From a virus, in IMG/VR virus record IMGVR_UViG_3300037313_000197, positions 1 through 64,000 of that record: a stretch of 64,000 nucleotides of DNA; one strand, 5' to 3'. The position numbers and the translations under genes were made by a program. The notes below the pieces were generated by a model. It was given only the letters and a program-made list of their open reading frames with translations. It searched no databases and was not told the origin of the DNA. Positions 40,682-57,216 of this stretch are shown one piece after another (the first letter of the stretch is position 1; each line of letters begins with the position of its first letter).

Positions 40682-40737
40682 AGGAGTGTGCCCGAGCATG
40701 CACTCAGAACTGCTCGTTAACCTAAGGAGTTAAATAT

Positions 40738-40917
40738 ATGTCGAAGGCTACCCTTCTTAACGTGCGCGAGGCTGCACAGTACCGTGGAATTACCGAGCGT
40801 CAGGTCCAGCGTCTTGCTTCTGCTGGTCTCTTCCCCGTTGCAGACGTGGGTGCTCGCAATGCTCTATTCTTCAAGAAGAGCGAGATTCGTTACGCCCCTG
40901 TTTCCCTAAAGGGCTGA
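40738..40917 (+). CDS. excisionase-like (HTH_17/MerR-type) DNA-binding protein, 59 aa
   Basis: Manual translation MSKATLLNVREAAQYRGITERQVQRLASAGLFP...; AAGGAG RBS; not in the ORF track. Confidence 0.75.
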   Translation: MSKATLLNVREAAQYRGITERQVQRLASAGLFPVADVGARNALFFKKSEIRYAPVSLKG

Positions 40918-40973
40918 GTTTTGAGTGCTGGGTATCACTTCTAAAAACTGCCCATCCATCACAAGGAGGAATC

Positions 40974-41141
40974 ATGGACAGTTATGACAGAGCAGTAGTA
41001 ATTATAGCGGTGACCTTTCTTTGGCTCATTGCTCTCATTGCCGCGCCCGGTGTCACATTCTTTTTTACCGTCCTTGTCATCATTGTTGGTGGAGCACTAA
41101 TGACTAGTGGAGGCGGTGATGGAAGAAATGGCAGAAGATAA
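40974..41141 (+). CDS. small 2-TM membrane protein
   Basis: Manual translation MDSYDRAVVIIAVTFLWLIAL...; AGGAGG RBS. Confidence 0.65.
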   Translation: MDSYDRAVVIIAVTFLWLIALIAAPGVTFFFTVLVIIVGGALMTSGGGDGRNGRR

Positions 41142-41349
41142 TCTGTTCATAACATTCCATAGATACAAGAGACTTGTAGAGGATGGAAAGGCCAGAGCCA
41201 TTCGGTGTCCAAATGATAATAGCGTTGTAATTATTGGACATGATGACGGAGAACTGAGACTAGTTTGCTACGTTTGCAATATTCGCGTAACACCCGGCCT
41301 TTCTCTTATTCAGCAGGTTCAGGCGGTAGTTAAGGAGCACTATCTCTAA
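41107..41349 (+). CDS. small Zn-ribbon protein
   Basis: RCPND...CYVC motif. Confidence 0.6.
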   Translation: MEAVMEEMAEDNLFITFHRYKRLVEDGKARAIRCPNDNSVVIIGHDDGELRLVCYVCNIRVTPGLSLIQQVQAVVKEHYL

Positions 41350-41605
41350 TGTTCTATTGGATTTCACGATTCTTTGACCATGTTTCCAATATTTTATATC
41401 CAAACGATATTACAGATGAGTTCTGGGATAAGGACGAAAATGATGCTGAATGAACTGCTAGAGCGTCTAGAAAAGGCTCGTTTTGCCCTAATCAAGTTGA
41501 AGAGCGAGGCTGCTCTTTATAACGAGTCAGAGGAAACAAGATTGGCCGGTAAGTTAGAGGGAGTCTCCCTTGCCATTTCATACTTAAGAGAGTACGAAAG
41601 ATTTA

Positions 41606-42280
41606 ATGACGGAAATTGAATTTGTAACTAAGCCTAGCGCCACACTTGTTCAAACAAATGCAAGTGACGAAATGGTTGCTATGGCAGCATGGGTTTCTTT
41701 TGACAGGGACTCAGAAGAAAGACTGGAAGACAAGGACCGAATGAATGGCCTTATTAACTTCCTAATGCGTGAGAAGCATATGAGTCCATTTGAGCATGGC
41801 TCATTTACTTTTAAGATTGATTGTCCAATCTTTGTGGCTCGTGAATTCCACCGCCACCGCACTATGGCATATAACGAGGTATCCGGCAGATATACGGAAA
41901 TGAAGCCTCGTTTCTATAGTCCATCACTAGATAGGCCGATGGTGCAGAAGGGCAAGGCTGGACAGTATTACTTTGAGCCTGAGGCAGACCTAGCATGGAA
42001 GGCTCAAACGGCTATTGGAAATGCGACACTTACAGCATGGCGTGAATACCAAAATATGCTAAAGGCCGGTGTTGCCAAGGAAGTTGCCCGCATGGCTCTT
42101 CCCAATAACCTCATGACTCAGTTCTATGCTACGGTAAATCCTCGTAATCTAATGCACTTCCTTGGGTTGCGTACCTCTGAGCAGGCCTTGTATGAGATTA
42201 GACTTGTTGCAGAGTACATGGAGAAGCATCTTGAAGAGGCTATGCCATTGACCTATAATGCTTGGAAGGTAAACTCATGA
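41606..42280 (+). CDS. thyX: flavin-dependent thymidylate synthase
   Basis: HMSPFEH and RHRTMAYNEVSGRY signature motifs. Confidence 0.95.
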   Translation: MTEIEFVTKPSATLVQTNASDEMVAMAAWVSFDRDSEERLEDKDRMNGLINFLMREKHMSPFEHGSFTFKIDCPIFVAREFHRHRTMAYNEVSGRYTEMKPRFYSPSLDRPMVQKGKAGQYYFEPEADLAWKAQTAIGNATLTAWREYQNMLKAGVAKEVARMALPNNLMTQFYATVNPRNLMHFLGLRTSEQALYEIRLVAEYMEKHLEEAMPLTYNAWKVNS

Positions 42281-44620
42281 GTGTCAGAGTAACAATGGAT
42301 AAGCGTGCGGTTACCAATAATGTAACGTATTGGGAAGACACTGAGCACTTTACGTATTCCTTCCAGTTCGACAAGCAGACCGGTACCGGCCAGATTCTAA
42401 AGTTTGACAAAGAAGGTAGACGCTACCTAGTCGCTCTTTACCCGCCCCATCTGCTAGCAGAGATTGTAGCAATTGATGAGAATTGAAGAAGGCGAACTGA
42501 ACTGGATTCAGAGAAACTTTAGGTATGCAGCAGTAAATGAACTAATGCCCAACCTAATTACCGCACATATCACTGATGTGTGGCGAAAGGAATCCTATGA
42601 GATTACTGCGTTTTTTGTTATTGACGGAGTATCCTACAGGGCCGATGCAGAAATAGCGTATGAAGGTATCGACAGCGCGGAGGGTCTGCAAAAGGCGATC
42701 CTAATTCTGCTCGGTACAATGATGAACGATTTTAAGGAGAATAAGAAGTGAGTGAAGAAAAGGTTGAGCCTCTAGACAGGCTTGTAGGCTCGGTACAGAG
42801 CGTTCTACAGCAGATCGTTGAGGATATTACCGAGGAAGATGCCAAGACGCGTGCAGAGCAGGCAGTTGCGGCAGTTCTACAGAGTGGTTACAAGATCACA
42901 GAGCCAGAGGCTCAGTTGGAGTTTGGTTTTACACCTGACGAAGAGTGATCGCGATAGGTGGTGGGTGTAGAAATATGCCCACCACCTTAGGCAATTGGAG
43001 GACAAATGGTTTTACTAATTATCATACTCGCCTGTTTTGCCGGAGGATTACTCGCCTGTGCTTCATGGCTGGCTATCTCTGAGGGTGAATATATGGGTGC
43101 AATTGTCGTCTCTGTAATGGCCGGTATATTCATATGGATTACATTGTCTGTTGCAGAGGCATACCATGCAGACATTCCCGGCAAGTGTGACAAGGCTGGT
43201 GGAGTGTATGTAGACACTACTTGTATCAATAAGAACGCGGTAATTACAATTCGGCGCTAACGCGCTATAACAGACAAGGGCCGCACCACCTACCGGCCCG
43301 GTATAGGATGAATATGTCTCTAAGTAATGATATAAATAGACTGTCAATTGCATGGCGTAGTTTTAAGGCATCACTGCTTACCGGCGAAGAGTTTGTTGTA
43401 GAAAAGCGCTATGTTTGTGACATATGTAGTATGGAATCGTTTGGATTTCATAAAGGCTGCCCCGGTATTTATATGAGACAGGAGCGCCTAGTTAGTAAAT
43501 GGAGCGACACAGGAGTTTCATATATTGAAGACATATTTGCGAAATCTCGTGCTTGACCTGCTGGATATTGTCTATGCCTATCTGGGGAGAGGGTCTTGAC
43601 AACACCCCCGGCCCGGTATAGGGTGGAGGAGAAGGAGGCATCATGAACAAAGACGACTACCCCCGTTCCTACGGATCAGACCACAACTATACCTGCCCGG
43701 TGTGCGGAGCAATTACCACCCAACGACAGAAACACACAGAATGGCATGAGTCCATTCAAATCATCATTGACAGCCTACAAGACACTCAGGCCGGTGTTAA
43801 CAAGATCAAACGTGCTGTTCAAGCACTAATGAATAGAGCGTAATGGAGATAATCATGGTAAATGATGGAAGTCTATTCTATGACAAGCAACTAAGCACAC
43901 AATACCCGCACTCTATCTTTCAAGTCTTTAGAGAGGCAAGGGCGGCCGGTGTTGAATATACACTCATCATTAGAAATCTACAGCCGGGTGTAGTAACACA
44001 TCGTTCAGATGTTACTTTGCCCTATGGTACCACCGAAGATGATGTTCGTACTGCTCTAATTAATAACATCAAGGCTCGATGATGGGACACTATGCAAGCG
44101 AAATGGGCTATTCCTCACGCCGCGATGTGTCATGGCTAAAGTGGGGATTTAAGGGAATCAATTTTACTGACAACCTATGCTGCCCTCTGTGCTTTGCCTC
44201 AATCCCAGAGAGCGTTATCAACATGGGAGGCACGACAGATGACTACCGCCTTCCTTGGATGGAACATATCTTCTGGCATGAGGAAAGCAACAAGGACAGA
44301 AAGTTTGCCTTTTATTGGAACTTTCCTTTGAGCAAGAGTGTCACTGACAGACGAGAAGCATATATGCTTGGTGAAATGAAGCGAGCATATAAGCAGCATA
44401 AGACGCTACCGGCGCAGTTCTTGGAAGAGTGGAGACAAAAGTGAAATGTAAGCACTGTGGCGTTGAGTTAAAGAACCCCGAAAATACAAACGGTTGGCTG
44501 CACATTACCGGATTGGGTCGTTGTCAGAGTCCCGACGTAGAATATGGACATTTAGCAGAGCCAGAGGGTTCACCCTGTCGCGCTGATGGACCAAATCCGT
44601 GTTTAGGCGCGTTTCGCTGA
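42277..44620 (+). CDS. run of about 9 small hypothetical genes (e.g. 42473-42751, 42748-42948, 43006-43260, 43308-43556, 43643-43843, 43843-44082, 44079-44444)
   Basis: Packed plus-strand ORFs; internal promoter TTGACA-17-TAGGGT at 43596-43624. Confidence 0.55.
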
Positions 44621-44902: not shown

Positions 44903-44944
44903 CAAAAGAAAAGGCTCGACCCTTTTGGGGTCGAGCCTTTTCTA
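44903..44944. terminator. bidirectional terminator between convergent blocks
   Basis: aaaagaaaaggctcgaccc-tttt-ggggtcgagccttttct. Confidence 0.8.
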
Positions 44945-44952: not shown

Positions 44953-45549
44953 TTAGAATCCAACCTGTGCGATTCGAATTGCGCGACGCTTTGCAATTCG
45001 GGCCGACTCGTGATTGATTGCGCCCTTCTTCACACCCTTGGGGAATGAAAGGAGAATCTTTGCAATCTGGTTAGGGTGGAGTGAGTCGATACCGACACAA
45101 ACGGGCTCGCCGTTGGCCTCGGTTGCGCGGTCCCTGTCGTTCGTGCAAAGCGTGCACGCGGCCACCATGTTACCGGGCACGTATGCGGACTCGTGAGCGG
45201 AGTACCCGCTAACCTCTACGTCCGCCCACAGTTGCGACGGAACGAGCAGAAAAGCGTTCGGGACCGTTCCGTTAGCCTCGGGCGTGGCCTCGTCACCGAT
45301 TGCCCAAAAGGTCTCGGTGCAAAAGAAACAACGTCCGTTCTGCGCTTCGATCATCGCGTCTAGGATGACGCCCATGCGCCGACCACCGAAAGCGTCACGC
45401 GTGCAGGCTGCCACTGCGAATTCGTTAGCGTCATCCGTGATGATTGCCTGAACCTGAGCCGGGGTCGCACCCTGAGCCTGCGCAATGTCAATCTTTGCGA
45501 GCAGGTCGGCGCGAGCGATTCCAGCCTCGGTGCGAGCGATGCGAGCCAT
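44953..45549 (-). CDS. degenerate HNH-fold / Zn-binding protein
   Basis: GRCFFC...LLVP...GNMVAACTLC; the catalytic DH position reads FL. Confidence 0.55.
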   Translation of the reverse strand: MARIARTEAGIARADLLAKIDIAQAQGATPAQVQAIITDDANEFAVAACTRDAFGGRRMGVILDAMIEAQNGRCFFCTETFWAIGDEATPEANGTVPNAFLLVPSQLWADVEVSGYSAHESAYVPGNMVAACTLCTNDRDRATEANGEPVCVGIDSLHPNQIAKILLSFPKGVKKGAINHESARIAKRRAIRIAQVGF

Positions 45550-45667
45550 GGTAGTTACCTTCCGTGTCGGTTCGGCCGTTCCGAACCTTGCAAGACATAC
45601 ATTACCCGTACGGGTAACTCTCGCAAGCCAAAACGGGCCAAAAACTCAAAAAAGTTTCCTGTGAAAT

Positions 45668-45710
45668 CTGTCCACAGGTTATCCCCATTGTGGATAACTT
45701 CTGTGGAAAA
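45668..45710. promoter_or_regulatory. cluster of four DnaA-box-like 9-mers
   Basis: CTGTCCACA (45668), TTATCCCCA (45679), TGTGGATAA (45689, perfect) and TGTGGAAAA (45702). Confidence 0.65.
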
Positions 45711-45920
45711 CTCGTTGAGTTTTCAACTACCCTCAGGGTAATCGGGTAGTGCAACTTTCAACTACTACCGAAGGTAGTAGTGAATTGCCCTCAGGGTATA
45801 CCCCCATGCGCAATTACGATGGGCCTTCCACATCACCGATTTTTTACCCTGAGGGTTTAGGTAAAAAGCCTTTTACGATGGAAAGCAAAAAGACCCGAAT
45901 TTCTTCGGGCCTTTCGCTTT

Positions 45921-46205
45921 TCAGTGATGACGAGAGCAACAACCAAAGTTGTTTGCGAGTGCGAATTCTCCGCACCTACCCGAGACTGGACCATCTTCCG
46001 TTTCGATCCGAACCAATTCGGAACACAGAACCGGGAAAGCCTTTCGGTCAATCACAGCCCATCCGACGTGAGTGTTTGCGGGACGGAACTCTCCACCAGC
46101 CTCCACAAACAGGCTCAGGTGCTCCGAGAGCAATCCTGCTCGCCAGTTCTGGCCGTACATTCCGATGAACTCCTGCGGGTTCGTTTCCGTGGAAAGCATC
46201 TTCAT
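45921..46205 (-). CDS. cassette gene, hypothetical (C-terminal Cys/His cluster)
   Basis: MKMLSTETNP...; promoter TTGACA(46269-74)-17-TAGGCT. Confidence 0.65.
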   Translation of the reverse strand: MKMLSTETNPQEFIGMYGQNWRAGLLSEHLSLFVEAGGEFRPANTHVGWAVIDRKAFPVLCSELVRIETEDGPVSGRCGEFALANNFGCCSRHH

Positions 46206-46317
46206 GGTTTCTTTCCTTCTCTGTTCTGTTTGGCTTGCTACGCTAAGCCTATTTCTACCGGCCTCCTTTGTCAATCCTTTGGATACCCTCAGGGTTATCC
46301 ATGAAAGCCCGAAGGCT

Positions 46318-46521
46318 TCACCCCTTTCCGAAGTGGCGGGTACCGTTCATGAAAACCCATGGACGCTTGTCCCACGTGTTGTTGCACGTGTAGCCGAGGA
46401 CGATGTGACCATCTCGGATCATGACCCGAGCGACCTCGTTGAGACGCTTGGCACGGTGAATGCCAATGTCGTGACGCTGGCCGCTCTTCTTGAGCCTGAT
46501 GTGTAGCGTGTAGTTGTCCAT
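46318..46521 (-). CDS. cassette gene family A, copy 1 (leaderless)
   Basis: NYTLHIR.K..G...GTRHFGK; paralog at 49663. Confidence 0.75.
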   Translation of the reverse strand: MDNYTLHIRLKKSGQRHDIGIHRAKRLNEVARVMIRDGHIVLGYTCNNTWDKRPWVFMNGTRHFGKG

Positions 46522-46601
46522 AACTGAACTCTATCAAATCCTCTTGTTTTGTCAATTCAGGATTTCCCTCAGGGTAATGAGCCTGACCCCGAAGGGCCAA
46601 A

Positions 46602-46704
46602 CTTATCAGGCACCATGCACCTGCCCATCGTCTCCGACGTAGAGGTAAAACTCTCCGTAGGGCTTTGCAAGGTTCGTGAGGTCTTCCCCAACCTGACCCT
46701 GACA
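46602..46704 (-). pseudogene. cassette retaining only a 3' gene fragment
   Basis: Reads GQVGEDLTNLAKPYGEFYLYVGDDGQVHGA* with no start codon after the promoter TTGACA-17-TAGTGT. Confidence 0.55.
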
Positions 46705-46800
46705 AAAAGAACACTACTTGTTTTCGCTCATGTTGTCAACGATAAAATCCCCTCAGGGTAATCGATACCCTCAGGGGAATTCGCCGGTAGGCCCGAAGGC

Positions 46801-47016
46801 CTATCTAATGATTACCTGTGTAGGAGACACTATCTCAACGCTCCTGTAGTCAACGTGATGTTGCTTCAACCACTTGACCAACAATGGATCAAGCGCCTGA
46901 GAGGTCACCACTCGGCTGCTCTTTGCAGATTGCCTGCGCCTTCTGGGCTTCTTGAAATCACCCTTTGCTGCTCTCTGCACTGTCTTTTCATGGATGGAGA
47001 CTACCTTTCTCACCAT
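46801..47016 (-). CDS. cassette gene, basic hypothetical protein
   Basis: ORF bounded by cassette promoter and hairpin. Confidence 0.65.
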   Translation of the reverse strand: MVRKVVSIHEKTVQRAAKGDFKKPRRRRQSAKSSRVVTSQALDPLLVKWLKQHHVDYRSVEIVSPTQVIIR

Positions 47017-47093
47017 GGCTCATGATTACATGCCTACCGGCCCGTGTCAAGATAAATTACCCTCAGGGCAATTCCGGCTGACCCCGTAGGGCC

Positions 47094-47341
47094 TTACTTG
47101 TTGGATCGGTGATTCTTGATCTGCTCATATGTCCAATACAGGAGCACGAGCACGATTCCCCAGAAAATACCGGTCACTCGCCACCGCCCGGTAGTTGATC
47201 AAAGGACCGGTAGCCGACGTGAGCATACAGCACGTCAAGCAAGGTCTGCTTGGAGTAGCCATTGATGCTCGTGACGATTTGGAGCGTTTGCTCGGAGACA
47301 CCCAGCCGAAGGAGTTTGTCCCACATCTCGTTTTCGTTCAT
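47094..47341 (-). CDS. two-gene cassette: 55-aa protein (47174-47341) and 27-aa TM peptide (47094-47177)
   Basis: Manual translations MNENEMWDKLLRLGVSEQTLQIVTSINGYS...GYRSFDQL and MTGIFWGIVLVLLYW...; GTGA overlap; leaderless start. Confidence 0.7.
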
Positions 47342-47438
47342 GAGTAAAGACTATGGTATTTCAGCCAATGCGTCAAGGCATTAATTACCCTCAGGGGAAT
47401 GGGCCGGTAAGCGAAAAGACTACCCGAAGGTAGTCTAA

Positions 47439-47633
47439 TCACTGTGCGTCATCGATTGTAAGAGTAGCCTTGGGACGCTCATCCTTGACATTGTGCCAAT
47501 TGAGAGCGAGCACCAGTGCATACCCTGCCAGAATCACAAAGGCAAAGGCAACAGCGAGTGTGAGCCATGCAAGCGCAATGTTGCTCACAGAACCACCAGC
47601 CATGGTGAGGATGAGTTCTGAAATCTTGTTCAT
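47439..47633 (-). CDS. cassette gene, single-TM membrane protein
   Basis: MNKISELILT...hydrophobic stretch; leaderless start. Confidence 0.65.
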   Translation of the reverse strand: MNKISELILTMAGGSVSNIALAWLTLAVAFAFVILAGYALVLALNWHNVKDERPKATLTIDDAQ

Positions 47634-47787
47634 GTATCCATGGTGACTGATAACTAATGTGTTGTCAAGCATTTGATACCCTCAGGGTAATAGGTACGTG
47701 CGAGAAAGCAAAACCCTCAGGGTAACAATCACATATGGGTAATCCCTCGCCACCTTTTACGATGGGAGGGATTAGACCCAGAATTCC

Positions 47788-48027
47788 TCAGACTCTCTTG
47801 TAAGCCATTTGGATGAAACGTGGTTCGGAACCACCCTCGGGCCATGAATAGACGTTGTACTGCCCTGCTGGGAAGTTTTCGTGCGCCAGCCCGAACCGGA
47901 TGACGTTTTGGACATTGGCGTAGTAGTGGAAACACTGACAGTCCGCTCCTGTGCCCAAACGCTCTCTGCCCGTTCGTGGGTCGATATAGGCTGTCAGGTA
48001 CCGACGCTTAATCGTTTTCTTTGTCAT
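47788..48027 (-). CDS. cassette gene, hypothetical (leaderless)
   Basis: TTGACA-16-TAGACT, ATG 6 nt downstream. Confidence 0.7.
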   Translation of the reverse strand: MTKKTIKRRYLTAYIDPRTGRERLGTGADCQCFHYYANVQNVIRFGLAHENFPAGQYNVYSWPEGGSEPRFIQMAYKRV

Positions 48028-48115
48028 GTCCTTAGTCTAGTTGTTTTGGCCGGTATGTCAATAGGATAATTTCCCTCAGGGTAAAACAAAAGACCCCGAA
48101 GGGCCTTCCGAATGT

Positions 48116-48364
48116 TCACTTTCTGTCCTTAGGCTCAAACTTGAAGTGACCCCAATCGTTGTAGTTGTCATCGTTCGTCACGGTGATGTTCACCGTGTAG
48201 ACCTCAAACGGGTCCACCACGTCACGCGCGATACCGGCCGCGTGTCCCGCAGTCACGATGCCTTGAATGTGCGAGTCGAGAATGAACGTAGGAGCATTCC
48301 GCGAACGCTGCCACCCATCCTCGTCCGGCATGTGAACGCTTGCCACAACCTTGTACGTAGCCAC
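48116..48364 (-). CDS. cassette gene, hypothetical
   Basis: GTG start after GAAGG RBS; MATYKVVASVH... Confidence 0.65.
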   Translation of the reverse strand: MATYKVVASVHMPDEDGWQRSRNAPTFILDSHIQGIVTAGHAAGIARDVVDPFEVYTVNITVTNDDNYNDWGHFKFEPKDRK

Positions 48365-48604
48365 TTGTCCTTCACCCTTCGTCAGTGAGTTTCTTATTTG
48401 TATCTTTGCATCTACCGGCCATGTTGTCAAGCATAAAATACCCTCAGGGTTATACATAAACAACAGTAAGGACACCATTCGCAGGTGCCCTTACCTCTGT
48501 GCTATCTGTTCCATCTATGAACTTGACTAAAATCTACTCTTCTACCGGCCAAATGTCAAGCGACTAATAACCCTCAGGGAATAAACATAAAACCCCGAAG
48601 GGCT

Positions 48605-48805
48605 TTAGTCGTTGCTGTGCCATGGACAGGGCTCGGTAGGCTCTAGGACATTGTTACCGTCAAGATCAAAGGCAATCTCAGCGTGCTTCCATGCACGCCC
48701 GCCCTCCTGCACGTAGTCACCGCACTCCATGAAGCGGTCACCGACCTTGACGTAGCACTCTCCTGTGTCTTCGTTTGTGAAGTGCCTAACCGGACGCTGT
48801 GCCAT
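48605..48805 (-). CDS. cassette gene, hypothetical
   Basis: AGGAGG RBS; MAQRPVRHF... Confidence 0.7.
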   Translation of the reverse strand: MAQRPVRHFTNEDTGECYVKVGDRFMECGDYVQEGGRAWKHAEIAFDLDGNNVLEPTEPCPWHSND

Positions 48806-48909
48806 GATTTCCTCCTGAGAACGAGTGATGGTTAAATCTAACTTCATACCGGCAAAATTGTCAACTCATAAAATACCCTCAGGGTAATTGCGTGACCCCG
48901 TAGGGCCAT

Positions 48910-49194
48910 TCAGTCCACCTTCCTCATCAGGCCAACGTAGCCTAGGCCCAGATTCCACGTGAGTACGTAGTCGCCTTCCTCCACCACCTCATCATTGACA
49001 CCCGCGCCAATGTCCTCACGTGCGTAGTGGTCGGACTCATCACCGTAGTCCCACTGAGACAGATACTCGATTGTCTCGGTGATGCTCTCAGCGGTGGCAC
49101 CGTGCGCGAGGATGCCCTCAACGTTGCAGAGTCGGTCTACTACCTCACGGCCTTCCTCATCCTGCATGAAGACAATGTTTGCGTAACGGGACAT
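48910..49194 (-). CDS. cassette gene, acidic hypothetical protein
   Basis: MSRYANIVFMQ...YLSQWDYG. Confidence 0.7.
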   Translation of the reverse strand: MSRYANIVFMQDEEGREVVDRLCNVEGILAHGATAESITETIEYLSQWDYGDESDHYAREDIGAGVNDEVVEEGDYVLTWNLGLGYVGLMRKVD

Positions 49195-49306
49195 TTTCCG
49201 TTCCTTTCTCGGTGGCTGATAAGGCAAATCTATAGGACAACAGTAAGGCGTGTCAACTCATTGTTACCCTCAGGGTATTTGGCTCGACCCCGAGGGGCCT
49301 AGCGGT

Positions 49307-49558
49307 TCACTCCTTGTTCACCAGCCAGATACCTTCTGCCATGTGCAACAGTGCCTCACGTGCCTCACGCTTGGTCGTCCCGAGGTTCCGACCCTTCTTG
49401 AAACCAGACTTGGAGGAAATGAACCACTGATAGCCGTATGAACTGTTACCGGCGTGTAGGGTCCAGTCCTCAGAGCCCTTGATACCGGCGCTCTCTGCTG
49501 CCTTCTTCAAGTAGGCGAAAGCGGCTGCAACATCACGCTTGCTGATACGCTCGGACAT
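49307..49558 (-). CDS. cassette gene family B, copy 1
   Basis: MSERISKRDV.AAF..LK.AA...GNS..GY...LG.TKREA; paralog at 50633. Confidence 0.75.
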   Translation of the reverse strand: MSERISKRDVAAAFAYLKKAAESAGIKGSEDWTLHAGNSSYGYQWFISSKSGFKKGRNLGTTKREAREALLHMAEGIWLVNKE

Positions 49559-49662
49559 TTCTTCATCTCCTTGGTCTCTGCTGTTGATGAAAGCATATCA
49601 GTTAACAAGAGCGAGTCAAGCGAGTGATTTCCCTCAGGGTAATGTCACAAACCCCGAAGGGC

Positions 49663-49914
49663 CTACTTCTCCTTGCCGAAGTGCCTAGTACCGACGCGGG
49701 GGAAGTGAGAGGCTGGGGTTACGTTCCCGCTCACTGGCGCTATCGTCTCGTTGATGCTGTACCCGGTGACGATGCGACCCTGCCTGATGTGATGCTGAGA
49801 CGCGGTGTTGAGGTCACGGACACGGTCCACTTGCTCATGGATCACCGTGCCATCCTTGTCGCGGACGTGCAGCGTGTAGTTGAGGTTTGGGTAAAGGAGG
49901 CTGTTGTTCGTCAT
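49663..49914 (-). CDS. cassette gene family A, copy 2 (leaderless)
   Basis: NYTLHVRDKDG...GTRHFGK. Confidence 0.75.
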   Translation of the reverse strand: MTNNSLLYPNLNYTLHVRDKDGTVIHEQVDRVRDLNTASQHHIRQGRIVTGYSINETIAPVSGNVTPASHFPRVGTRHFGKEK

Positions 49915-50090
49915 GGCAAAGAGCCTATCGGTTCCTTGCTTGGTGTCAAATCATGATTACCCTCAGGGTTTTGGATACCCTCAGGGTAACTTTCCATAAC
50001 GGGGATTTCCCTGAGGGCTTTTACGAAGGACATACGCCATCACCGAATTTCCCTGAGGGTTTACGAGTTGACCCCGAAGGGCCGGTAAGT

Positions 50091-50489
50091 TTACCGATTC
50101 TGTCGAGCCGAGCACAGAGCACAACGAGTGGTCTTCGCCTCCCAATCGTAAATCCACCTGTGCTGAGGGTGCGTGTCTTCTGGGATGACGCCCTCTCGGA
50201 ACCGGCCACACGTGAGCCTATGGAATTCCTTGGCGTCTTCGTAGTAGGACATGGACGCATTCGGGTCGAGTTTGAACAGGAGACCGATCAAGGCTCCCCA
50301 CTCGTCCCACGTAGCAGCCTTCCACTCACCCGACTGAGCCATGCGCGTAGAGGAACCGCTGAGTTGCAGTTCAAAGGCGTGGTCACGCTTCCGTGAGCCG
50401 TGCTCGGTCAGAATCTCCGGGTAGAGGTCGAGCCCTCGTGCAGCCTCCCACACGTCAGCGTACCTCAGGGTGTCGGTATGAATCCTCAT
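50091..50489 (-). CDS. cassette gene, hypothetical (C-terminal CxxC)
   Basis: MRIHTDTL...HGSRKRDHAFEL.L.G...ATWDEWG. Confidence 0.7.
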   Translation of the reverse strand: MRIHTDTLRYADVWEAARGLDLYPEILTEHGSRKRDHAFELQLSGSSTRMAQSGEWKAATWDEWGALIGLLFKLDPNASMSYYEDAKEFHRLTCGRFREGVIPEDTHPQHRWIYDWEAKTTRCALCSARQNR

Positions 50490-50632
50490 TGGGGTTTCCT
50501 TCCCTTGGTTGGTAGTGCTAACACTATCAGGTTTAATAAGTTCGATCAACACCGGCCTACCCTCAGGGTAATATTCCTAGGTATGAAAGAAACCCGTTAC
50601 TCTGTGGTGAGTAACGGGTTTCTCTCGTCGTG

Positions 50633-50935
50633 CTACTTGCCTGTCGTGATCTGTCGACGGCTCCGACGCACCGGCTCCGGTGCCGGGTGAAGAGCCATGT
50701 CGATGCCCTTCGCCATGTGGAGCATGGCAGCCGTGGCCTCTCGCTTGGACCGGCCGAGGTTCTCGGTCAGGTAGCGGGTACCCTTGCGGTCGGTGATGCG
50801 GCACGTGTACCCCTCGGTGCTGTTGCCGAAGTAGAGGTTCCAGTTCTCTGCGTCCCTGACCCCCGCCTCGTCCGCAGCCTCCTTCAGCGTCTCGAAAGCC
50901 GACTTGACATCTTCGTTTGTGATGCGCTCGGACAT
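50633..50935 (-). CDS. cassette gene family B, copy 2
   Basis: MSERITNEDVKSAFETLKEAA...GNSTEGY...LGRSKREA. Confidence 0.75.
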   Translation of the reverse strand: MSERITNEDVKSAFETLKEAADEAGVRDAENWNLYFGNSTEGYTCRITDRKGTRYLTENLGRSKREATAAMLHMAKGIDMALHPAPEPVRRSRRQITTGK

Positions 50936-51066
50936 GTATTCTCCTTTGCTCGTCTCCCCCGGTTCGGGTCTTGCTGTTCTTGGTGACATTCCAAGAGTCC
51001 CATATATCGGCGGTATGTCAAGCGGAACACAACCCTCAGGGTAATGACTTCCCCCGGAGGGGAGGC

Positions 51067-51234
51067 TTAGAGCCTGACCGTCACCGGTCTTCCTGTGTCC
51101 CTATACACAGTGACAGTGTGTTCCTTCGTGGTGACCGTAGAGACCCCGAGCCACACGTCAAGCGCCGTGAGCGCGCTGATAGCGACCCACAGAACAGCCT
51201 TCTTGATGGAGCGTGTACCCTCGTTGTCCTGCAT
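51067..51234 (-). CDS. cassette gene, small TM protein
   Basis: MQDNEG...AVLWVAISALTALDVWLGV. Confidence 0.55.
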   Translation of the reverse strand: MQDNEGTRSIKKAVLWVAISALTALDVWLGVSTVTTKEHTVTVYRDTGRPVTVRL

Positions 51235-51360
51235 GGCCGACTCACCTATACCCCTGTCTCGGAAAAACCTCACATAGAGGATCTAACTCTCATTTCGCCC
51301 ATATGTCAATAGATGAAATACCCTCAGGGTTGTGAGACTTGACCCCGAAGGGCCAGATGG

Positions 51361-51576
51361 TTAACGCTTGTTGTAGTCCTCGTGGGCACGGTCCAGACTG
51401 TTGAAGTAGTGACCCCACGACCAGTCCTTGTCCTCTACCGCCGACACTACAGCCGTCACGTATTCGAAACCAGAGTCACTAAACTGCGACTTCTTGACCC
51501 CGAAGATGACCAGACCATCATTCTTCGAACCGTAGGGACGGTGAGCGATGATCGTAAAGCCGTTGACCTTGTCCAT
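51361..51576 (-). CDS. cassette gene, hypothetical
   Basis: GGAGG RBS; MDKVNGF...WSWGHYF. Confidence 0.7.
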   Translation of the reverse strand: MDKVNGFTIIAHRPYGSKNDGLVIFGVKKSQFSDSGFEYVTAVVSAVEDKDWSWGHYFNSLDRAHEDYNKR

Positions 51577-51727
51577 GGTTTCCTCCATGTTGTTCCGGTT
51601 GATATAGCCAATATTACCGGACATAAAACAGGTGTCAAGCCAAAACATAACCCTGAGGGTAACTTATACCCTAAGGGTTTATCAATTTGCAAGAAAAGCC
51701 CACCATCAGGTAGGCTCCCCTGCTTCA

Positions 51728-52228
51728 CTAGTGAGTGTAATCAACAATGACAATCTCAGCGTTAGTGTTGAAATACACATTTCCTTCATGGATATCGGTG
51801 ATATCGGTAACCTTGGAAATGCCAGCCATCATTTCTTTAACGGAAGGATCACACCAGAATTCATCCCAGCCAAATCCATACCAAAGAACATTTCCAGCAC
51901 ACGGCTCGTATTCCATAACGAGAACGTTGGAATCTGTAAAGAATTCAACGCACTTAGCAAGGCGCACCATTCCATTTGAAAGAGCAACAACTTCTGCTCC
52001 CCAAAGATGGAACTGCTCCCATTCTGTGGTGTTCTCCTGCCATAGTCCCTCAGTGTTGTGCTGCACCTTGTACACGTATCCATCAGGAGCAAGAATTGCC
52101 GTCCTATATGCACCCGCGCCCAAAAACTTCCAGCCGTCAGGGAGCGCGTAGGTGTCCGTATCCTCATCGTAGTTGCAAGGCTGGATCAGTTCCCTTGCAA
52201 GTTCTGCTGTGTTTTCGCTCGGTTTCAT
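51728..52228 (-). CDS. minimal protein-kinase-like protein
   Basis: LGAGAYR Gly loop, VYKV lysine, VLVMEY hinge, DIHEGN catalytic loop, terminal IVDY. Confidence 0.75.
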   Translation of the reverse strand: MKPSENTAELARELIQPCNYDEDTDTYALPDGWKFLGAGAYRTAILAPDGYVYKVQHNTEGLWQENTTEWEQFHLWGAEVVALSNGMVRLAKCVEFFTDSNVLVMEYEPCAGNVLWYGFGWDEFWCDPSVKEMMAGISKVTDITDIHEGNVYFNTNAEIVIVDYTH

Positions 52229-52372
52229 GAGGGAATCTTGTCACATGTCCGATTTGTCTTGCAAGTCCGACACGCCCGATATTTACCCTGAGGGTAAATA
52301 AGTTTAGAAATACCCTGAGGGTATAGGAGGGTATGCCAAAATTACCCTTTCGGGTAACCTTGGGCTTGACTT

Positions 52373-52672
52373 CTACTTGCTGGTGGGGTCCAACTTCGAC
52401 CTCTCGATACCGGCCGCGTCACCGATCTTGTTCAGTTCAGCGAGCAACTTCGGACCGTTGAAGCGCTTGGCCTTGGACCAACCGTAGTTGCAGGCCATGG
52501 TTGCCTCCTGATTGCGGAGCATGCTACGACCGTGCTTCATGCGGAAGATCACGGCGTTGCGAAGCATGAGGAAGGCGTAGGTGTTGACCGACTCACGCCC
52601 GGTAATCATGAACCCTCCGTCACCCGTGGACTCGATGCCCTCGGTGGAAAGACGCTGCGGCTCGTTCGACAT
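52373..52672 (-). CDS. cassette gene, hypothetical
   Basis: Promoter TTGACG-17-TAGATT; RBS. Confidence 0.7.
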   Translation of the reverse strand: MSNEPQRLSTEGIESTGDGGFMITGRESVNTYAFLMLRNAVIFRMKHGRSMLRNQEATMACNYGWSKAKRFNGPKLLAELNKIGDAAGIERSKLDPTSK

Positions 52673-52885
52673 TTTTCTTGCTCCTTGCTCGGTGGTTGAT
52701 ATGGATAAATCTACGCCTGTTTTGAAGAGTCGTCAAGCCCTAATTACCCGTGTGGGTAATGGCCGTTTCGGTGTTTTCCCTGAGGGTAATAATCCCCTGA
52801 GGGTAAGTGTTTACCCTTTACGATGAGATGCAAAAGAGCCAGAATTTGATAAAGGAAAAGGGCACCCTTTCGGATGCCCTTTCCT

Positions 52886-53595
52886 TTAATCCTCGTCTAT
52901 GCTTCTCTCCTGCTGATTCATCAAATCAACAATCTGAGCAGCAAAGATGGTCTGACGCAGGTAAGTCTTATTCCCCTTGTCATCGCCCTTTTCCAAATCC
53001 ATCTGCCAGAATTCCATCATGTGTTTGATTACCTTCCACATGATTGCCTGATATACATAACCACCACGCGTCATGTAATAGGCGAACTCTGCTGGCTTGA
53101 AATCGAGCCTATTGAAAACTTCAAGGAACCGACCTGCCGTGCGCTCTTCGTATGACTTTGCCATGGAGCCTCCCTTTAGTTGGCTACCGGCGTGACCTTC
53201 TGAGCACCGTGGTAGGTCAAGACTACAGCATCGTTGCAGGTGTGTCCAACGAGTGAGTAGCCACAGTTCATGCAGGCACCCTTACCGTTGATCTTGTACG
53301 TCTTTCCATTGTGAGTATAGGAAAACATCTGGTCACGGTCATAGCGGTAGAAAGCGTCCGCGTACTGATTGACCTCGACCTCTTCGGTGACCGTCTTCTC
53401 AGTGTCCTTGGAAGGCTTCTTAGCGACCATCACGGTAGCCGTAGGCGCTCCCTTCGTCCGGAAGACCATACCGCCCTTCTTAGCCTCCTGAACAGCCTTC
53501 TTGGCTTCCAGAGACATGCGTCCACGTCCAGCCTTAGCAAGACCAAGGCTGATAGCGTAGTCCTTCTCAGTTCCATTGAACGGCTTCGTACTCAT
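52886..53595 (-). CDS. two-gene cassette (53176-53595 with GRGR motif and CxxC...H...C; 52886-53164)
   Basis: ORFs between promoter TGGACA-18-TAAACT and the hairpin at 52851-52887. Confidence 0.7.
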
Positions 53596-53776
53596 GTGAG
53601 TTAATGCTCCTTGCTTGGGTGGGTGATATAGCAGAGTTTATCCGGGTTCGTTGGGGAATGTCCAGATAGAATTACCCTCAGGGTTTTAATTACCCTGAGG
53701 GTTGAGGAAGGTAGTGCAAAATTTCCCTTTCGGGAAAAGTTGCTAGGCAGTTTTTTGACTTGCCTAGGTCAGTGAC

Positions 53777-54175
53777 TCACTCAGCCGACTCAGTGGCCGG
53801 AACGAGCGAGGCGAGGTCACCACGAGCGAACGCTTCCAGCACGGAGCGCTGCGGCATCCCACGCTCACCCACGCGGACACCAGCCTCACGAGCGGCCTCG
53901 CGAACCTCGCTGATGACGACGGTCTTGGAGAGCGGCGTCTTGCCACCCTTCGCGTTCGTCTTGAACGTCTTGACCTTGACCGTCTTGGGCTCGGCATAGC
54001 CGACCTCGTAACGGACGCCCCGGTTCGACTTCTCGAACTCTGCACGGATGGCCGGGTGCAGACGACCACGCTCGCCCACGCTGTAGTCCTTGGGAAGACC
54101 CTCGATCTTGGAGAGGTCAACACCCTTCGCCCAAGCACGGACGACGGACGCGGTGACGTTCTTCTTCGAAGCCAT
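53777..54175 (-). CDS. Lsr2-like protein with tandem DNA-binding domains
   Basis: VRAWA...VGERGRL...F and VREAAREAGVRVGERG...VLEAF resemble the Lsr2 C-terminal domain (IREWAR..G..VS.RGRIP..V..AY). Confidence 0.75.
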   Translation of the reverse strand: MASKKNVTASVVRAWAKGVDLSKIEGLPKDYSVGERGRLHPAIRAEFEKSNRGVRYEVGYAEPKTVKVKTFKTNAKGGKTPLSKTVVISEVREAAREAGVRVGERGMPQRSVLEAFARGDLASLVPATESAE

Positions 54176-54452
54176 GATGTTTCTCCTTCTGTCGTGGGGA
54201 AACCTTTCCCCTTGTTGGTTGTCTCTATCTTGCCTGACTTTGGAGAGACTGTCAAGACCCTTTTACCCTTCTGGGTATTTGTTTGTCGGTCTTGATTGCT
54301 CTTCTCTGTCGCTTACAAGTACAAAGTTACGCCTCATAACAACTACTGTCAACCGTTTCTTTTCCCTGAGGGTTATATCACTACATCTAGTACCCTGAGG
54401 GTAATTTACTACTACATATACCCTGAGGGTAATCTGCCAAACCCCGAAGGGC

Positions 54453-54892
54453 TCAACCCTCATCAGGTTCGAAAGGATTGACTTTTCCGTCCTTGGAAGC
54501 CTTGCGGAAGAATTCGTTTTCACGCTCTAGGCTCTTCTCGACCTCTTCTGACTCAGTTGGGATATACCCAACCCAAGCGATAAGATCGGACATGGCGTCG
54601 GCCGGAACGATGATGGTGATTGCTGGTGAAGTGAAAGACCTTGCTTCCACGTAGAAATCTCCATCTTCACGCTTGCGGAAGAACAGAGAATTTCCATTGT
54701 TCGACTCTATCCAGAAGTCATTCATCATGCCTCCCAGATACCGGTCCGGAGCATCATGCGCTCTCCTGCTCGGTTGTCACGGGTACGTGGTCCACGCATA
54801 CCGAGGCCGGTACGCTCACGATTGCTCATGATCTTGGACTCGTGACGGTTGAAACGCTTTGGGCTCTGAGCCCTCTTCATGTTCTTGTTCAT
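54453..54892 (-). CDS. two-gene cassette (54725-54892 basic 55 aa, leaderless; 54453-54728)
   Basis: Manual translation MNKNMKRAQSPKRFNRH...; ATGA overlap. Confidence 0.65.
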
Positions 54893-54976
54893 AAGAGGAT
54901 CATTTCATTCGTTCTTATGTCTGTCAAGAGATTTATTTCCCTGAGGGTATACCGGCTCCCCCGAAGGGGAGAACGA

Positions 54977-55288
54977 TCAGTCCTCGTTCCACTTGTAGAA
55001 TTCACGCTGCTGAGCCTTGAACCACTGCTCTGCTGCGTGCTGACTCGTTGCCTTCTGGTAATAGAGAAAACCTTGGTCGTTCTCCATGGTCGTGTACCAT
55101 GCAGGCTCGATTTGGTCGAGAGTGTCAGCCAGACCGGCATCATCCAGAACGTCAAGAAGAATGTCTCGGTCTGTGGACATGTCGATGATGGAGAAGAATC
55201 CCGTAGGAGATTCCACATTACCGTCCGACTGGTTCGCCCAGCCAGCGGAGATGATCGCCTTGAACGCGTTGTCAATGTCTCTGCTCAT
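54977..55288 (-). CDS. cassette gene, acidic hypothetical (leaderless)
   Basis: MSRDIDNAF...DGNVESPTGFF; TTGACA-17-TAGATT. Confidence 0.7.
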   Translation of the reverse strand: MSRDIDNAFKAIISAGWANQSDGNVESPTGFFSIIDMSTDRDILLDVLDDAGLADTLDQIEPAWYTTMENDQGFLYYQKATSQHAAEQWFKAQQREFYKWNED

Positions 55289-55385
55289 AACGATGAATCT
55301 ACTCCTACTAATAACGAGTGTCAAGAGGAGGTTACCCTGAGGGTATTGCCTCTGGCCTACCGGCCCATGATGGGGCGGTAGGTAT

Positions 55386-55628
55386 TCAGTTGTCTTGGCC
55401 GGTGTCGTAGGTATGAGCAGAAACCATACGTCCATGTCTGTTGACACCGTATCGAATCCACTGACCTTCCTTGAAATTCTCGATGAAGTGGTTCACCTGA
55501 GAATCACCCTCGGTACGTACCGGAGCACGTCCGTCAATGAAGTAGACCCAGAAGGTAGGATTCCCACTTGCAGAAACCCGACCTCTTTCTACTTTCTCGA
55601 TCCGTCCTGCATGGTATGTGATCTTCAT
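55386..55628 (-). CDS. cassette gene, possible OB-fold-like protein (leaderless)
   Basis: MKITYHAGRIEKVER...GNP.F.V.F; TTGACA-17-TAAATT. Confidence 0.65.
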   Translation of the reverse strand: MKITYHAGRIEKVERGRVSASGNPTFWVYFIDGRAPVRTEGDSQVNHFIENFKEGQWIRYGVNRHGRMVSAHTYDTGQDN

Positions 55629-55725
55629 AAGACAGAATTTACAGTGATAACCGATCCGTGTCAAGAGTAAATAACCCTGAGGGTAAAGTGCTCCTGAGCC
55701 TACCGGCCCGAAGGCCGGTAGTGTG

Positions 55726-56226
55726 TCAGGCGTCTTGGAAAGACTTCCCATTGTAGAGAACCCAAGCACTGTGACACTTGCACTGGTGTCCCTTGTACTT
55801 GATAATTCCACGCTTCGTCGTACGCTGCTTGACAAGCCTGTCCATGTGAGCCACAACATTGCCCGTGACAGAACAGGTAACAACGTAGTTGGCAGTTGCC
55901 TTCTTCGCTTCCACCTGAGCGGAGTTGCTTCGCTTGGTTCGGTTGGGAGACTGACCGAGTTCGATCATCTTCCTACGCCAGACGATTCCGTGACCGTGAC
56001 CGGCACCAACAAGAGCGTGTGCAATCTCGTGCATGACCGTAGCCATGAATTCGTCCTCTTCCGAGTTCTCCGTGAGAAACTTGGAGAAAGAGAGAGTCTT
56101 GTATCGGTACTGACAAAGACCGAAACGGTGTCGTGCGTTGTCCCACTGGAACACCCATCCCTGAGAGATGAGTCCGTGGTTCCTCATGGCTGTCTCTGCG
56201 AGGCGTCGTGCCTGTGTCGTGTTCAT
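55726..56226 (-). CDS. SprT-like Zn metalloprotease (leaderless)
   Basis: RFGLC.Y, TVMHEIAHA, HG.VW motifs. Confidence 0.85.
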   Translation of the reverse strand: MNTTQARRLAETAMRNHGLISQGWVFQWDNARHRFGLCQYRYKTLSFSKFLTENSEEDEFMATVMHEIAHALVGAGHGHGIVWRRKMIELGQSPNRTKRSNSAQVEAKKATANYVVTCSVTGNVVAHMDRLVKQRTTKRGIIKYKGHQCKCHSAWVLYNGKSFQDA

Positions 56227-56344
56227 GTAGACAAAGGTAGTTATTAACGGCCATGTTGTCAACGATAAATTACCCTGAGGGTAGAGGCCGGGTAAAGTGA
56301 AAGGGTCACAGGTAGCGACCCTGTAACCCTTGGAAAGAATACGT

Positions 56345-56547
56345 CTATCCTCTCCCTATAGAAACCTCATCCGGCTACGGACCAGACAGGGGTAGCCATG
56401 GCATCCCTTTGGGAGTTGCACCCGTTTGGCTCCTATATTCACCCTGTTGAAAGTGTCTGGTTAAAGGTGTCTTACTCTGTATTCCCTGTAAGGCTCATCC
56501 TTTGGACTGGTTACCATTGGGCCAAGTTCCTCGTCTCACTTCCAACA
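56345..56547 (-). ncRNA. candidate structured non-coding RNA occupying a whole cassette
   Basis: Promoter TTGACA-17-TAGTGT; 11-bp stem starting at the predicted +1; T-loop-like GGG-TGCAACT-CCC; no ORF above about 28 codons. Confidence 0.6.
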
Positions 56548-56637
56548 ACACAAACACTAGTACTGAACATATGGTGTGTCAAACTCCCATTACCCTCAGG
56601 GTCGCCGGTAGAGAAATACCCTTGCGGGTATCCCCTC

Positions 56638-56742
56638 TCATACAGTACATATCAAGTATGCAATCAGTATGATAGGTGAAAGTATCACAAGGATGACCAT
56701 GGTATATACCACAATCACCATTCCAACAATGAAGTTGTTCAC
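56638..56742 (-). CDS. 34-aa hydrophobic peptide
   Basis: GGAGG RBS, GTG start, MNNFIVGMVIVVYTMVILVILSPIILIAYLICTV. Confidence 0.6.
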   Translation of the reverse strand: MNNFIVGMVIVVYTMVILVILSPIILIAYLICTV

Positions 56743-57216
56743 TGTGTCCTCCCATAGAGTCGGTATCTCACCCTACCACTCTACCGGCCCAACTCTTTAC
56801 CCTCAGGGTATCTTCTACTAGTAGGGAAAACCCTCAGGGTATCTTCGCCGGTGTAGAAACAACAAACCAAACATGATAATCGTTTCTACTAGTAGAAAAC
56901 ACCCTATTACGATGGAGACCCTACATCACCGAATTTGTCTCTATTACGATGGCGAGGCTAGATCACCGATTTTTAGCATTTTTGCGGCATTTTTGGCTGT
57001 TTTGAGCCTCATTTGCGTAAAAATCAGCATATTTTAGCCGTATTTAAGCCTTTTATATACTGTCGCCATATCACTTCATATTAGTGTTATCTTGACAGGC
57101 CACATTTATTTCCTTTGTCATCGACATTTAGTGAAGCATATACCTTCATTTGGGCTCAATGAAGGCTATACCTTCATCATCCTATCTGTCTACATGGACA
57201 TAAGGTACTAGGGTCT

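Follow-up and report, generated by a model that had tools for sequence, protein, structure and literature searches.

An 11-kb cassette array with a palindrome phased to its promoters in a predicted lytic actinophage

Several described phage systems resemble the locus reported here, an array of small-gene units in the first 64 kb of the virus record IMGVR_UViG_3300037313_000197 of IMG/VR (64,000 nucleotides, hereafter the window), where a separate promoter and hairpin go with nearly every gene and the units share one palindrome. Cluster A mycobacteriophages such as L5 and Bxb1 have stoperators, asymmetric 13-bp sites that occur genome-wide, are bound by the immunity repressor of the temperate phage, and block elongation, and cluster O mycobacteriophages carry dyad repeats. 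The array is similar to both in having dozens of 13–17 bp motifs of the protein-binding type in the short intergenic gaps of an actinophage, yet its site differs from stoperators in being symmetric, confined to one block, and phased to the −35 hexamer, in a phage without an integrase. Another parallel is with the host-takeover modules of SPO1 and T5 (PMC6873191): terminal blocks of 10–13 kb with about 25 small, strongly expressed early genes and host-type promoters, the products of which mostly have no known function and are directed at host processes, as is likely for the array. In SPO1, the genes form operons, whereas the array has a promoter and a hairpin for nearly every gene, and the SPO1 texts consulted describe no common upstream operator. 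The promoter-early stem-loop (PeSL) cassettes of T4-type phages (Arbiol et al. 2010, PMC2839356; Comeau et al. 2014, PMC4122927) are alike in their composite terminator/promoter junctions, consensus host-sigma early promoters, and stable stem-loops. Both also sit in the most plastic genome region upstream of ORFans (orphan open reading frames, ORFs), and have indels or replacements with breakpoints in the junctions, in few cases here. On the other hand, our locus belongs to a siphoviral actinophage with a host in another phylum and not to a T4-like myovirus, so it is PeSL-like in its working but not homologous. It forms one contiguous, one-directional 11-kb block, whereas PeSL cassettes lie in dispersed hyperplastic regions; a 17-bp dyad fixed to the −35 box replaces their AT-rich upstream region, and many of its mRNAs are leaderless.

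The initial annotation of the window called this architecture integron-like, a comparison that we do not uphold. Tyrosine and serine recombinases (PF00589, PF00239) have no match in the complete genome under study (G000) or in that of its 131-kb IMG/VR relative (G001), and there is thus no recombinase of the IntI type. Each unit has its own promoter instead of one common Pc, and the junctions consist of a 13–17 bp dyad and a short GC hairpin rather than attC sites, which are imperfect palindromes of 57–141 bp. The kind of locus is known, from SPO1/T5-type terminal modules and T4-type PeSL cassettes, and it is not an integron. What is new is a phased, sequence-specific dyad at the presumed early promoters, which is kept through a near-complete turnover of the cargo and has lineage versions in cultured relatives.

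The window holds 37 copies of the palindrome TACCCTSAGGGTA with at most one mismatch, where shuffles predict 0.03, and all of them lie within 45728–56841. Allowing two mismatches gives 41 sites, in which the 9-bp core does not vary and the dyad symmetry reaches 17 bp, ATTACCCTSAGGGTAAT. The confinement holds for the whole genome of 126,890 bp, where 41 of the 42 copies of the core CCCTSAGGG are inside the array region. Some junctions hold two to four palindromes, and five palindromes, at both array ends, are without a TTGACA promoter. At 26 sites, the minus strand reads palindrome, then 7–10 bp (mode 8–9), then a TTGACA-like hexamer, and the palindrome centre lies near −50 relative to the promoter. 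Counted to TTGAC, the gap is 7–10 bp in 22 sites, while the gap between hairpin and palindrome ranges from 3 to 30 bp. G001 has 28 TACCC-N3-GGGTA sites in the same grammar as G000, with the half-sites kept and the middle 3 bp free, and is the only other genome in IMG/VR with this grammar as an array. In related fragments, a single palindrome is found between divergent promoters, at equal distance to each. A scan of 185,579 prokaryote genomes (596 Gb) for the palindrome together with the promoter, and not for the bare site, returned 26 scattered single matches, one of them actinobacterial, which is chance level. Because of this, the palindrome/promoter module appears to be phage-specific and not borrowed from a host regulon.

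The units around these palindromes had been described as about 25 single-gene cassettes. The array of palindrome, promoter, ORF, and hairpin stands after motif counts, a promoter scan, and a hairpin survey, and junction elements do recur between unrelated ORFs, with a likeness at motif level (60–85% over 30–50 bp). The count is closer to 27, and the single-gene description does not apply throughout: three units are bicistronic (C6, C8, C23; numbering as in Table 1), two have a promoter and a terminator but are ORF-less (C2, C19), and one, C25, has no canonical start codon. On the minus strand, the array (11.1–11.4 kb, ~27 small ORFs, 50–54% GC vs. 46–49% in the flanks) is thus a chain of GC hairpin, palindrome, promoter, and one or two small ORFs. 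The −35 hexamer is exactly TTGACA in 21 of 26 scored units, followed after 16–18 bp by a TAGNNT or TANNNT −10 element, and a generic sigma-70 scan found 19 promoter-like sites where 8.2 were expected, 18 of them on the minus strand. Twelve units are leaderless, with translation starting 5–7 nt past the −10 element, and the remaining units have leaders of 25–60 nt with GGAGG-like ribosome sites. A stem-loop lies directly 3′ of the stop codon in all 24 coding-unit ends examined; UUCG is the commonest loop (10/24), GAAA the next (4/24), and most of these hairpins have no U-run. The candidate small RNAs (sRNAs) of C2 and C19 fold better than shuffles (z = −2.9 and −3.7, respectively), and the C2 RNA has no conservation past its first ~30 nt in G001 or in the fragment L161. 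The open frame of C25 is conserved and has no ATG, GTG, or TTG start. We also observed a motif, TCTT(S)TTGTCAG, right after the −10 box in several transcripts: C25 (46584–46739, minus strand), one at 36555 in G001, and two at ~920 and ~1360 in L186.

The phage itself is most closely related, among cultured phages, to the Streptomyces BE/BK phages, which are siphoviral Stanwilliamsviridae (portal 57–61% and RNR 57% amino acid identity). Its structural and nucleotide-metabolism genes are the usual set, and it encodes WhiB and Lsr2-like proteins. Based on these identities and genes, and on the lack of a tyrosine or serine recombinase, it appears to be a lytic, uncultured actinophage that is new at about the genus or subfamily level; the earlier assignment to actinophages agrees with this and with the leaderless starts. 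BE1 phages have direct terminal repeats of 10.7–11.5 kb with 20–25 ORFs, one of them lsr2-like and the rest without known function (PMC5764925), and the repeat of Coruscant has 54.4% GC vs. 47.0% elsewhere (PMC8612146). The array adjoins ThyX, a glycosyltransferase, and RNR, as in Jay2Jay, and the first protein of C8 (C8a) is 49% identical to Jay2Jay gp9. From its size, lsr2-like gene, GC content, gp9 match, and neighbors, and from the circular assembly with ends overlapping by 127 bp, the array is on balance probably the counterpart of the ~11-kb BE terminal repeat. The metagenome assembler would then probably have collapsed the repeat into one copy, giving a circle. Jay2Jay terminal-repeat ends gave no alignment with the array borders.

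The same grammar is present in the cultured phages. In the terminal repeat of Jay2Jay (BE1; L005, 1–11000), the junctions read GC hairpin, GTCCG-N3-CGGAC, and TTGnnn-17-TAGACT, and in that of Karimac (BE2; L227, 1–11600), hairpin, GCCG-CCC-CGGC, AAAAGATCTTGA, and TTGnnn-17-TAGACT. The homologous context, ~11-kb size, 20–25 small ORFs, lsr2-like gene, GC above the genome mean, and grammar are therefore alike. The palindromes differ, being TACCC-N3-GGGTA in our phage, GTCCG-N3-CGGAC in BE1, and GCCG-CCC-CGGC with AAAAGATCTT in BE2, and BE1 and BE2 phages carry different palindromes yet share hosts (S. griseus). In addition, the spacing from palindrome to −35 box is tighter in our phage, the block is oppositely oriented to ThyX and RNR, and there is almost no cargo in common. 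We found no published description of this grammar in the BE papers (PMC5764925, PMC8612146) or in full-text literature searches.

While the grammar is kept, the genes are not. The initial annotation had proposed that an alignment of relatives would place breakpoints in gene content at the junctions, and the comparison supports this: gene order is not kept, and cassette-level indels map to junctions. G000 and G001 are distant, with core proteins 55–70% identical, and no part of the genome is less conserved between them than the array: at E ≤ 1e-5, 2 of 27 crude array ORFs (7%) have a G001 homolog, compared with 27–100% in the other 10-kb bins. About nine array ORFs are common to G001 at E ≤ 1e-3, in altered order, with C3 and C25 moved. 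C6a, C8b, C11, and C27 are small proteins that both genomes encode. We also compared metagenome fragments of two to six units each. L183 equals G001 minus one 287-bp cassette, and identity runs up to, through, and beyond the shared TACCCTGAGGGTA, which places the crossover at or inside the palindrome that the two have in common. In L168, one G001 cassette is missing and another is transposed, and in L186 the C24 homolog adjoins the C20 homolog. Between Jay2Jay and Samisti12 (both BE1), there are two clean single-cassette indels with breakpoints inside junctions, and in both the junction sequence is repeated at each end, one repeat being ~55 bp. In Samisti12, a pair of neighboring 441-bp ORFs takes the place of a single one in Jay2Jay, perhaps through duplication of a cassette. 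Relatives thus differ by gain, loss, and movement of whole cassettes, and the grammar outlasts the cargo. Recombination at the seams seems to be a real but secondary property of the array, since the likeness of junctions is at motif level and selection alone places many breakpoints between genes.

The cargo has few recognizable functions. We searched Pfam with 25 cassette proteins, the 198-aa boundary protein, and four upstream ORFs, and 2 of the 25 cassette proteins received names, C3 as a SprT-like metalloprotease and C7 with an Lsr2 DNA-binding domain. With PHROGs, an Lsr2-like N-terminus was recognized in C8a and C10 weakly matched T7 0.7-type kinases, and C3, C5, C14, and C17 fall in PHROG families without assigned function. 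Several products are small membrane peptides, and most of the cargo is ORFan. There are paralog pairs within the array, C13/C16 (50% over 80 aa) and C15/C26. Such a set (SprT-like, two Lsr2-like, kinase-like, small membrane proteins, and ORFans) fits host takeover as far as predicted functions go and, with the consensus host-type promoters, gives the block the appearance of an early host-takeover region, as the initial annotation had suggested.

We hypothesize that the array is an early host-takeover block and that the 17-bp site is the operator of a phage-encoded dimeric regulator of all its early promoters, a reading to which we give a probability of roughly 0.6. An operator is suggested by the fixed distance to the −35 box together with the variable distance to the hairpin, and by the single palindrome that serves divergent promoters, as a symmetric dimer site would. 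Since G001 keeps the half-sites while the middle 3 bp vary, a dimer operator is indicated rather than a hairpin or a recombination core, and the chance-level occurrence of the module in prokaryote genomes points to a binder encoded by the phage. In each unit, a consensus promoter for the actinobacterial housekeeping sigma factor (TTGACA-16/18-TAGNNT) would fire one or two small genes, often leaderless, and the GC-rich UUCG or GAAA hairpin would end, insulate, or stabilize the transcript. The phage-encoded dimer would bind ATTACCCTSAGGGTAAT, 8–9 bp upstream of the −35 box, and control all early promoters jointly. With promoters that are already consensus, control is most likely a coordinated shut-off after the early phase. 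A by-product would be that the conserved junctions offer short homology for deletion, duplication, and movement of cassettes, so that the cargo turns over and the regulatory scaffold stays. One candidate for the binder, suggested by co-occurrence, is a 59-aa HTH_17 protein encoded outside the array; its G001 ortholog is 76% identical, and it has no homolog in cultured phages. A search for regulators in G000 and G001 gave no Sigma70_r2, no convincing HTH_3, and no ParB_N.

Several points weigh against this reading. Early timing is taken from the promoter type and from analogy with SPO1, T5, and BE phages. A site centred near −50 would be an uncommon one for a simple repressor and may instead act in activation or anti-silencing. 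The palindrome is also able to form a small hairpin, and N4 variants with GNRA-like loops occur as terminators and also upstream of promoters. The support for HTH_17 is its lineage specificity and its conservation in G001, which are true of many ORFans. Compared with Jay2Jay, the array is inverted relative to ThyX and RNR. Lastly, gene order in BE1 is mostly conserved, and selection by itself would be expected to put some of the breakpoints into intergenic junctions.

The position of the palindrome is the starting point for one alternative, in which a phage or injected protein near −50 recruits RNA polymerase or shields the incoming DNA from host nucleoid proteins such as Lsr2, so that the block is switched on. 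Class I-type activators use the upstream face on which the centre near −50 lies, the distance to the −35 box is rigid, some promoters have extra tandem palindromes upstream, and the block encodes Lsr2-like proteins. However, the 21 of 26 scored units with exact TTGACA and a good TAGNNT should be strong unaided, and the activator would have to precede all phage gene expression, with no candidate found in our search; we regard activation as unlikely. The turnover of cassettes raises the question of whether the junctions are primarily recombination sites of a gene-capture platform, with the palindrome as the crossover site and regulation secondary. The L183/G001 crossover, the BE1 indels with junction repeats at both ends, the cassette order that differs among G000, G001, L168, and L186, and the paralogous cassettes would all agree with this. 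Yet neither G000 nor G001 has a tyrosine or serine recombinase, the junctions are similar at motif level with no long identity, a fixed distance from palindrome to −35 box is needless for recombination, and a free centre of 3 bp between fixed half-sites, as in G001, is typical of a protein operator. A primary role in recombination is therefore improbable in our view.

The palindrome could also act in RNA: folded into a small hairpin wherever a transcript reads through, it would provide a second terminator or a signal for processing or stability. It is true that TACCC-loop-GGGTA hairpins with GAAA or GCAA loops are the terminators of C1 and C9, that a terminator scan detects some palindromes, and that most GC hairpins are without a U-run. 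But a stem of 5 bp closed by a 3-nt loop has little strength, it is the −35 distance that is fixed and the hairpin distance that varies (3–30 nt), the site has the same sequence on either strand and serves promoters that point away from each other, and the half-sites are kept exactly rather than merely in their pairing, which argues for recognition of the DNA sequence and makes an RNA role very improbable. A related idea, the palindrome as a roadblock that forms a terminator with the hairpin, was set aside, as a block 3–9 bp behind the hairpin would be expected to stall polymerase before the hairpin completes. Finally, the site might belong to a host transcription factor through which the phage senses the state of its host, and the differences in palindrome between phage lineages could mirror different hosts. 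This is the least probable of the explanations considered, given that the palindrome/promoter module is at chance level in the prokaryote genomes (the bare site being outside that scan) and that BE1 and BE2 have S. griseus in common as a host but differ in palindrome. The phage-encoded operator remains our preferred explanation.

Table 1. Features of the array and its surroundings (window coordinates; promoters as −35 element, spacer in bp, −10 element; aa, amino acids).
Feature	Coordinates	Strand	Remark
Whole presumed early-gene cassette block, head to tail motifs	45603..56975	-	Holds all palindromes, promoters, hairpins
Head: two tandem second-motif copies, AAATTCGGTGAT-N11-CCATCGTAATAG (ATTCGG-17-CGTAAT, promoter-like)	56904..56975	-	
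C1: palindromes 56841, 56810; weak TTGGGC promoter; 34-aa membrane peptide (GTG 56742 to 56638); GCAA hairpin	56611..56841	-	
C2: palindrome; TTGACA-17-TAGTGT; ORF-less ~264-nt transcript (56290-56553); hairpin 56322-56302; candidate sRNA	56302..56603	-	
C3: palindrome; TTGACA-17-TACCTT; leaderless 166-aa SprT-like metalloprotease (56226-55726); UUCG hairpin	55700..56283	-	PF10263, 3.7e-10
C4: palindrome; TTGACA-17-TAAATT; leaderless 80-aa ORFan; hairpin	55356..55685	-	
C5: palindrome; TTGACA-17-TAGATT; leaderless 103-aa protein; hairpin	54955..55345	-	phrog_1587; homolog of BillNye gp5
C6: palindrome; TTGACA-17-AATGAT; leaderless bicistron (55 aa very basic, then 91 aa); UUCG hairpin	54436..54949	-	
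C7: three palindromes and N4 variant; two tandem promoters; 132-aa protein, Lsr2 DNA-binding domains; GAAA hairpin	53722..54431	-	PF23359, 2.8e-7; phrog_1223
C8: two palindromes; TGGACA-18-TAAACT; bicistron (139-aa Lsr2-like with Cys motif; 92 aa); canonical terminator with T-run	52851..53703	-	phrog_6269, 5e-12
C9: second-motif copy 52825; palindromes 52805, 52788; N4 variant 52758; TTGACG-17-TAGATT; 99-aa ORFan; TACCC-GAAA-GGGTA hairpin	52336..52847	-	
C10: two palindromes; CTTGCA-type promoter; leaderless 166-aa kinase-like protein; terminator	51692..52323	-	phrog_15752 (T7 0.7-type kinase), 2e-4, weak
C11: two palindromes; TTGACA-16-TAATAT; 71-75-aa ORFan; UUCG hairpin	51340..51679	-	Common to G001
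C12: palindrome; TTGACA-18-TAGATC; leaderless GTG; 68-aa membrane protein; hairpin	51050..51331	-	
C13: palindrome; TTGACA, weak -10; 100-aa ORFan; 18-bp terminator stem	50586..51043	-	
C14: palindrome; TTGATC-17-TAGTGT; 132-aa protein; UUCG hairpin	50070..50570	-	phrog_18547
C15: four palindromes and second-motif variant; TTGACA-16-TAGGCT; leaderless 83-aa ORFan; UUCG hairpin	49647..50061	-	
C16: palindrome; TTGACT-16-TATGCT; 83-aa ORFan; hairpin	49286..49641	-	
C17: palindrome; TTGACA-18-TAGATT; 94-aa protein; UACG hairpin	48893..49277	-	phrog_23219
C18: palindrome; TTGACA-18-TAGATT; 66-aa ORFan; UUCG hairpin	48588..48886	-	
C19: palindrome; TTGACA-17-TAGATT; ORF-less ~70-nt transcript (48455-48527); 12-bp terminator with T-run; candidate sRNA	48455..48581	-	
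C20: palindrome; TTGACA-17-AAAGAT; 82-aa ORFan; UUCG hairpin	48087..48451	-	
C21: palindrome; TTGACA-16-TAGACT; leaderless 79-aa ORFan; hairpin encloses second-motif copy 47764	47741..48083	-	
C22: two palindromes; TTGACA-17-CACCAT; leaderless 64-aa membrane protein; UUCG hairpin	47417..47724	-	
C23: palindrome; TTGACG-17-TAGTCT; leaderless 55-aa ORF and overlapping small membrane ORF; UACG hairpin	47079..47398	-	
C24: palindrome; TTGACA-17-AATCAT; leaderless 71-aa basic protein; UUCG hairpin	46787..47070	-	
C25: two palindromes; TTGACA-17-TAGTGT; ~35-codon open frame; UUCG hairpin	46584..46778	-	Weak G001 homolog
C26: palindrome; TTGACA-16-TAGAGT; leaderless 67-aa ORFan; UUCG hairpin	46304..46576	-	
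C27: palindrome; TTGACA-17-TAGGCT; 94-aa Cys-rich ORFan; terminator with T-run	45886..46296	-	Promoter and leader 87% identical to last G001 cassette
Tail: palindromes 45857, 45798, 45740 without TTGACA promoter; second-motif copies 45880, 45821	45728..45880	-	
DnaA-box-like cluster: TTATCCACA, TTTTCCACA, third box TTATCCCCA on + strand	45679..45710	.	
N4 palindrome TACCCGTACGGGTA; weak CTTGCA promoter; 198-aa gene (44953-45549), CxxC...CxxCN	44953..45616	-	
59-aa HTH_17 (MerR/Xis-type); own TTGACA-17-TATTAT promoter, no palindrome	40738..40917	+	PF12728, 7.6e-7

The surroundings of the array have features of their own. Outside it, an operon of ~15 small ORFs of no assigned function (40315–44620, plus strand) heads toward the array. 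It opens with the HTH_17 gene, includes ThyX, has two consensus promoters (40557, 40653), both without a palindrome, and meets the array at a bidirectional terminator (44905–44943). Nearer relatives than G001 exist, as HTH_17 homologs are 73–90% identical, one of them (90%) on a 107-kb contig and another (76%) on a 64-kb contig. IMG/VR contigs that carry HTH_17 homologs stop short of the array, and C3 has no close relative in IMG/VR. A DNA search of the region against 50,697 phage records, both near and distant, gave no match, Rfam on 44–58 kb returned terminator-like noise only, and there are no transfer RNAs in the window. The 198-aa border gene has a CxxC ... N-x4-CxxCN pattern that is HNH-like by eye only; an AlphaFold2 model is too poor to use, with a mean confidence (pLDDT) of 37.6, and neither Pfam nor PHROGs gives a match for the protein. 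In BE phages, an annotated HNH gene lies at the inner border of the terminal repeat.

A second motif, AAATTCGG(TGAT)-N-CCATCGTAA(T/A)AG, is promoter-like, with a CGT −10 in the style of extracytoplasmic function sigma factors, and lies on the minus strand at 56951, 56914, 52825, 50028 (a variant), 47764, 45880, and 45821. Its 8-nt core CATCGTAA has 11 genome matches, 6 of them in the array on the minus strand, and the full motif is found only in those 6. The layout, two at the head, three internal, and two at the tail, is the same in G001 (26293, 26334 ... 37530, 37586), and no Sigma70_r2 protein is encoded in either genome. Directly downstream of the array is a DnaA-box-like cluster, with three boxes in G000; the homologous spot in G001 (37620–37728, L010) has nine DnaA boxes in ~110 bp and holds 5 of the 11 strict matches in that genome. 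Such a cluster at the block border may be a DnaA-dependent origin or a DnaA sink. We also noted an octamer, GCCGGTAG, which is ~30-fold over-represented (32 in the window vs. 1.07 expected, 58 genome-wide, and 29 in G001). It occurs on both strands with a bias to the transcribed strand, in genes, promoter spacers, and terminator stems, and its flanks are not conserved. We considered it as a second operator in promoter spacers and rejected this, as it is over-represented genome-wide and has no fixed context.

Taken as a whole, large Streptomyces-type phages seem to arrange their first-expressed genes much like T4 PeSL regions and the SPO1 module, and the piece added here is a palindrome that is phased to the presumed early promoters and outlasts the genes it would control. 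The grammar is also found in cultured phages of BE1 and BE2, so that whether a single regulator switches ~25 promoters is open to direct test in S. lividans or S. griseus. For actinobacterial synthetic biology, the units are compact and apparently strong promoter, leaderless-start, and terminator parts, and the cargo is a pool of ~25 small proteins without known function that are likely aimed at host processes. More tentatively, and as a possibility that we rate well below even, the dyad site and its binder may be a family-wide master switch that co-evolves by lineage, with the junction doubling as a recombination seam that wires captured ORFs into the early regulon. If true, these phages would have a self-standardizing gene-capture platform that works by ordinary homologous recombination and is integrase-free.

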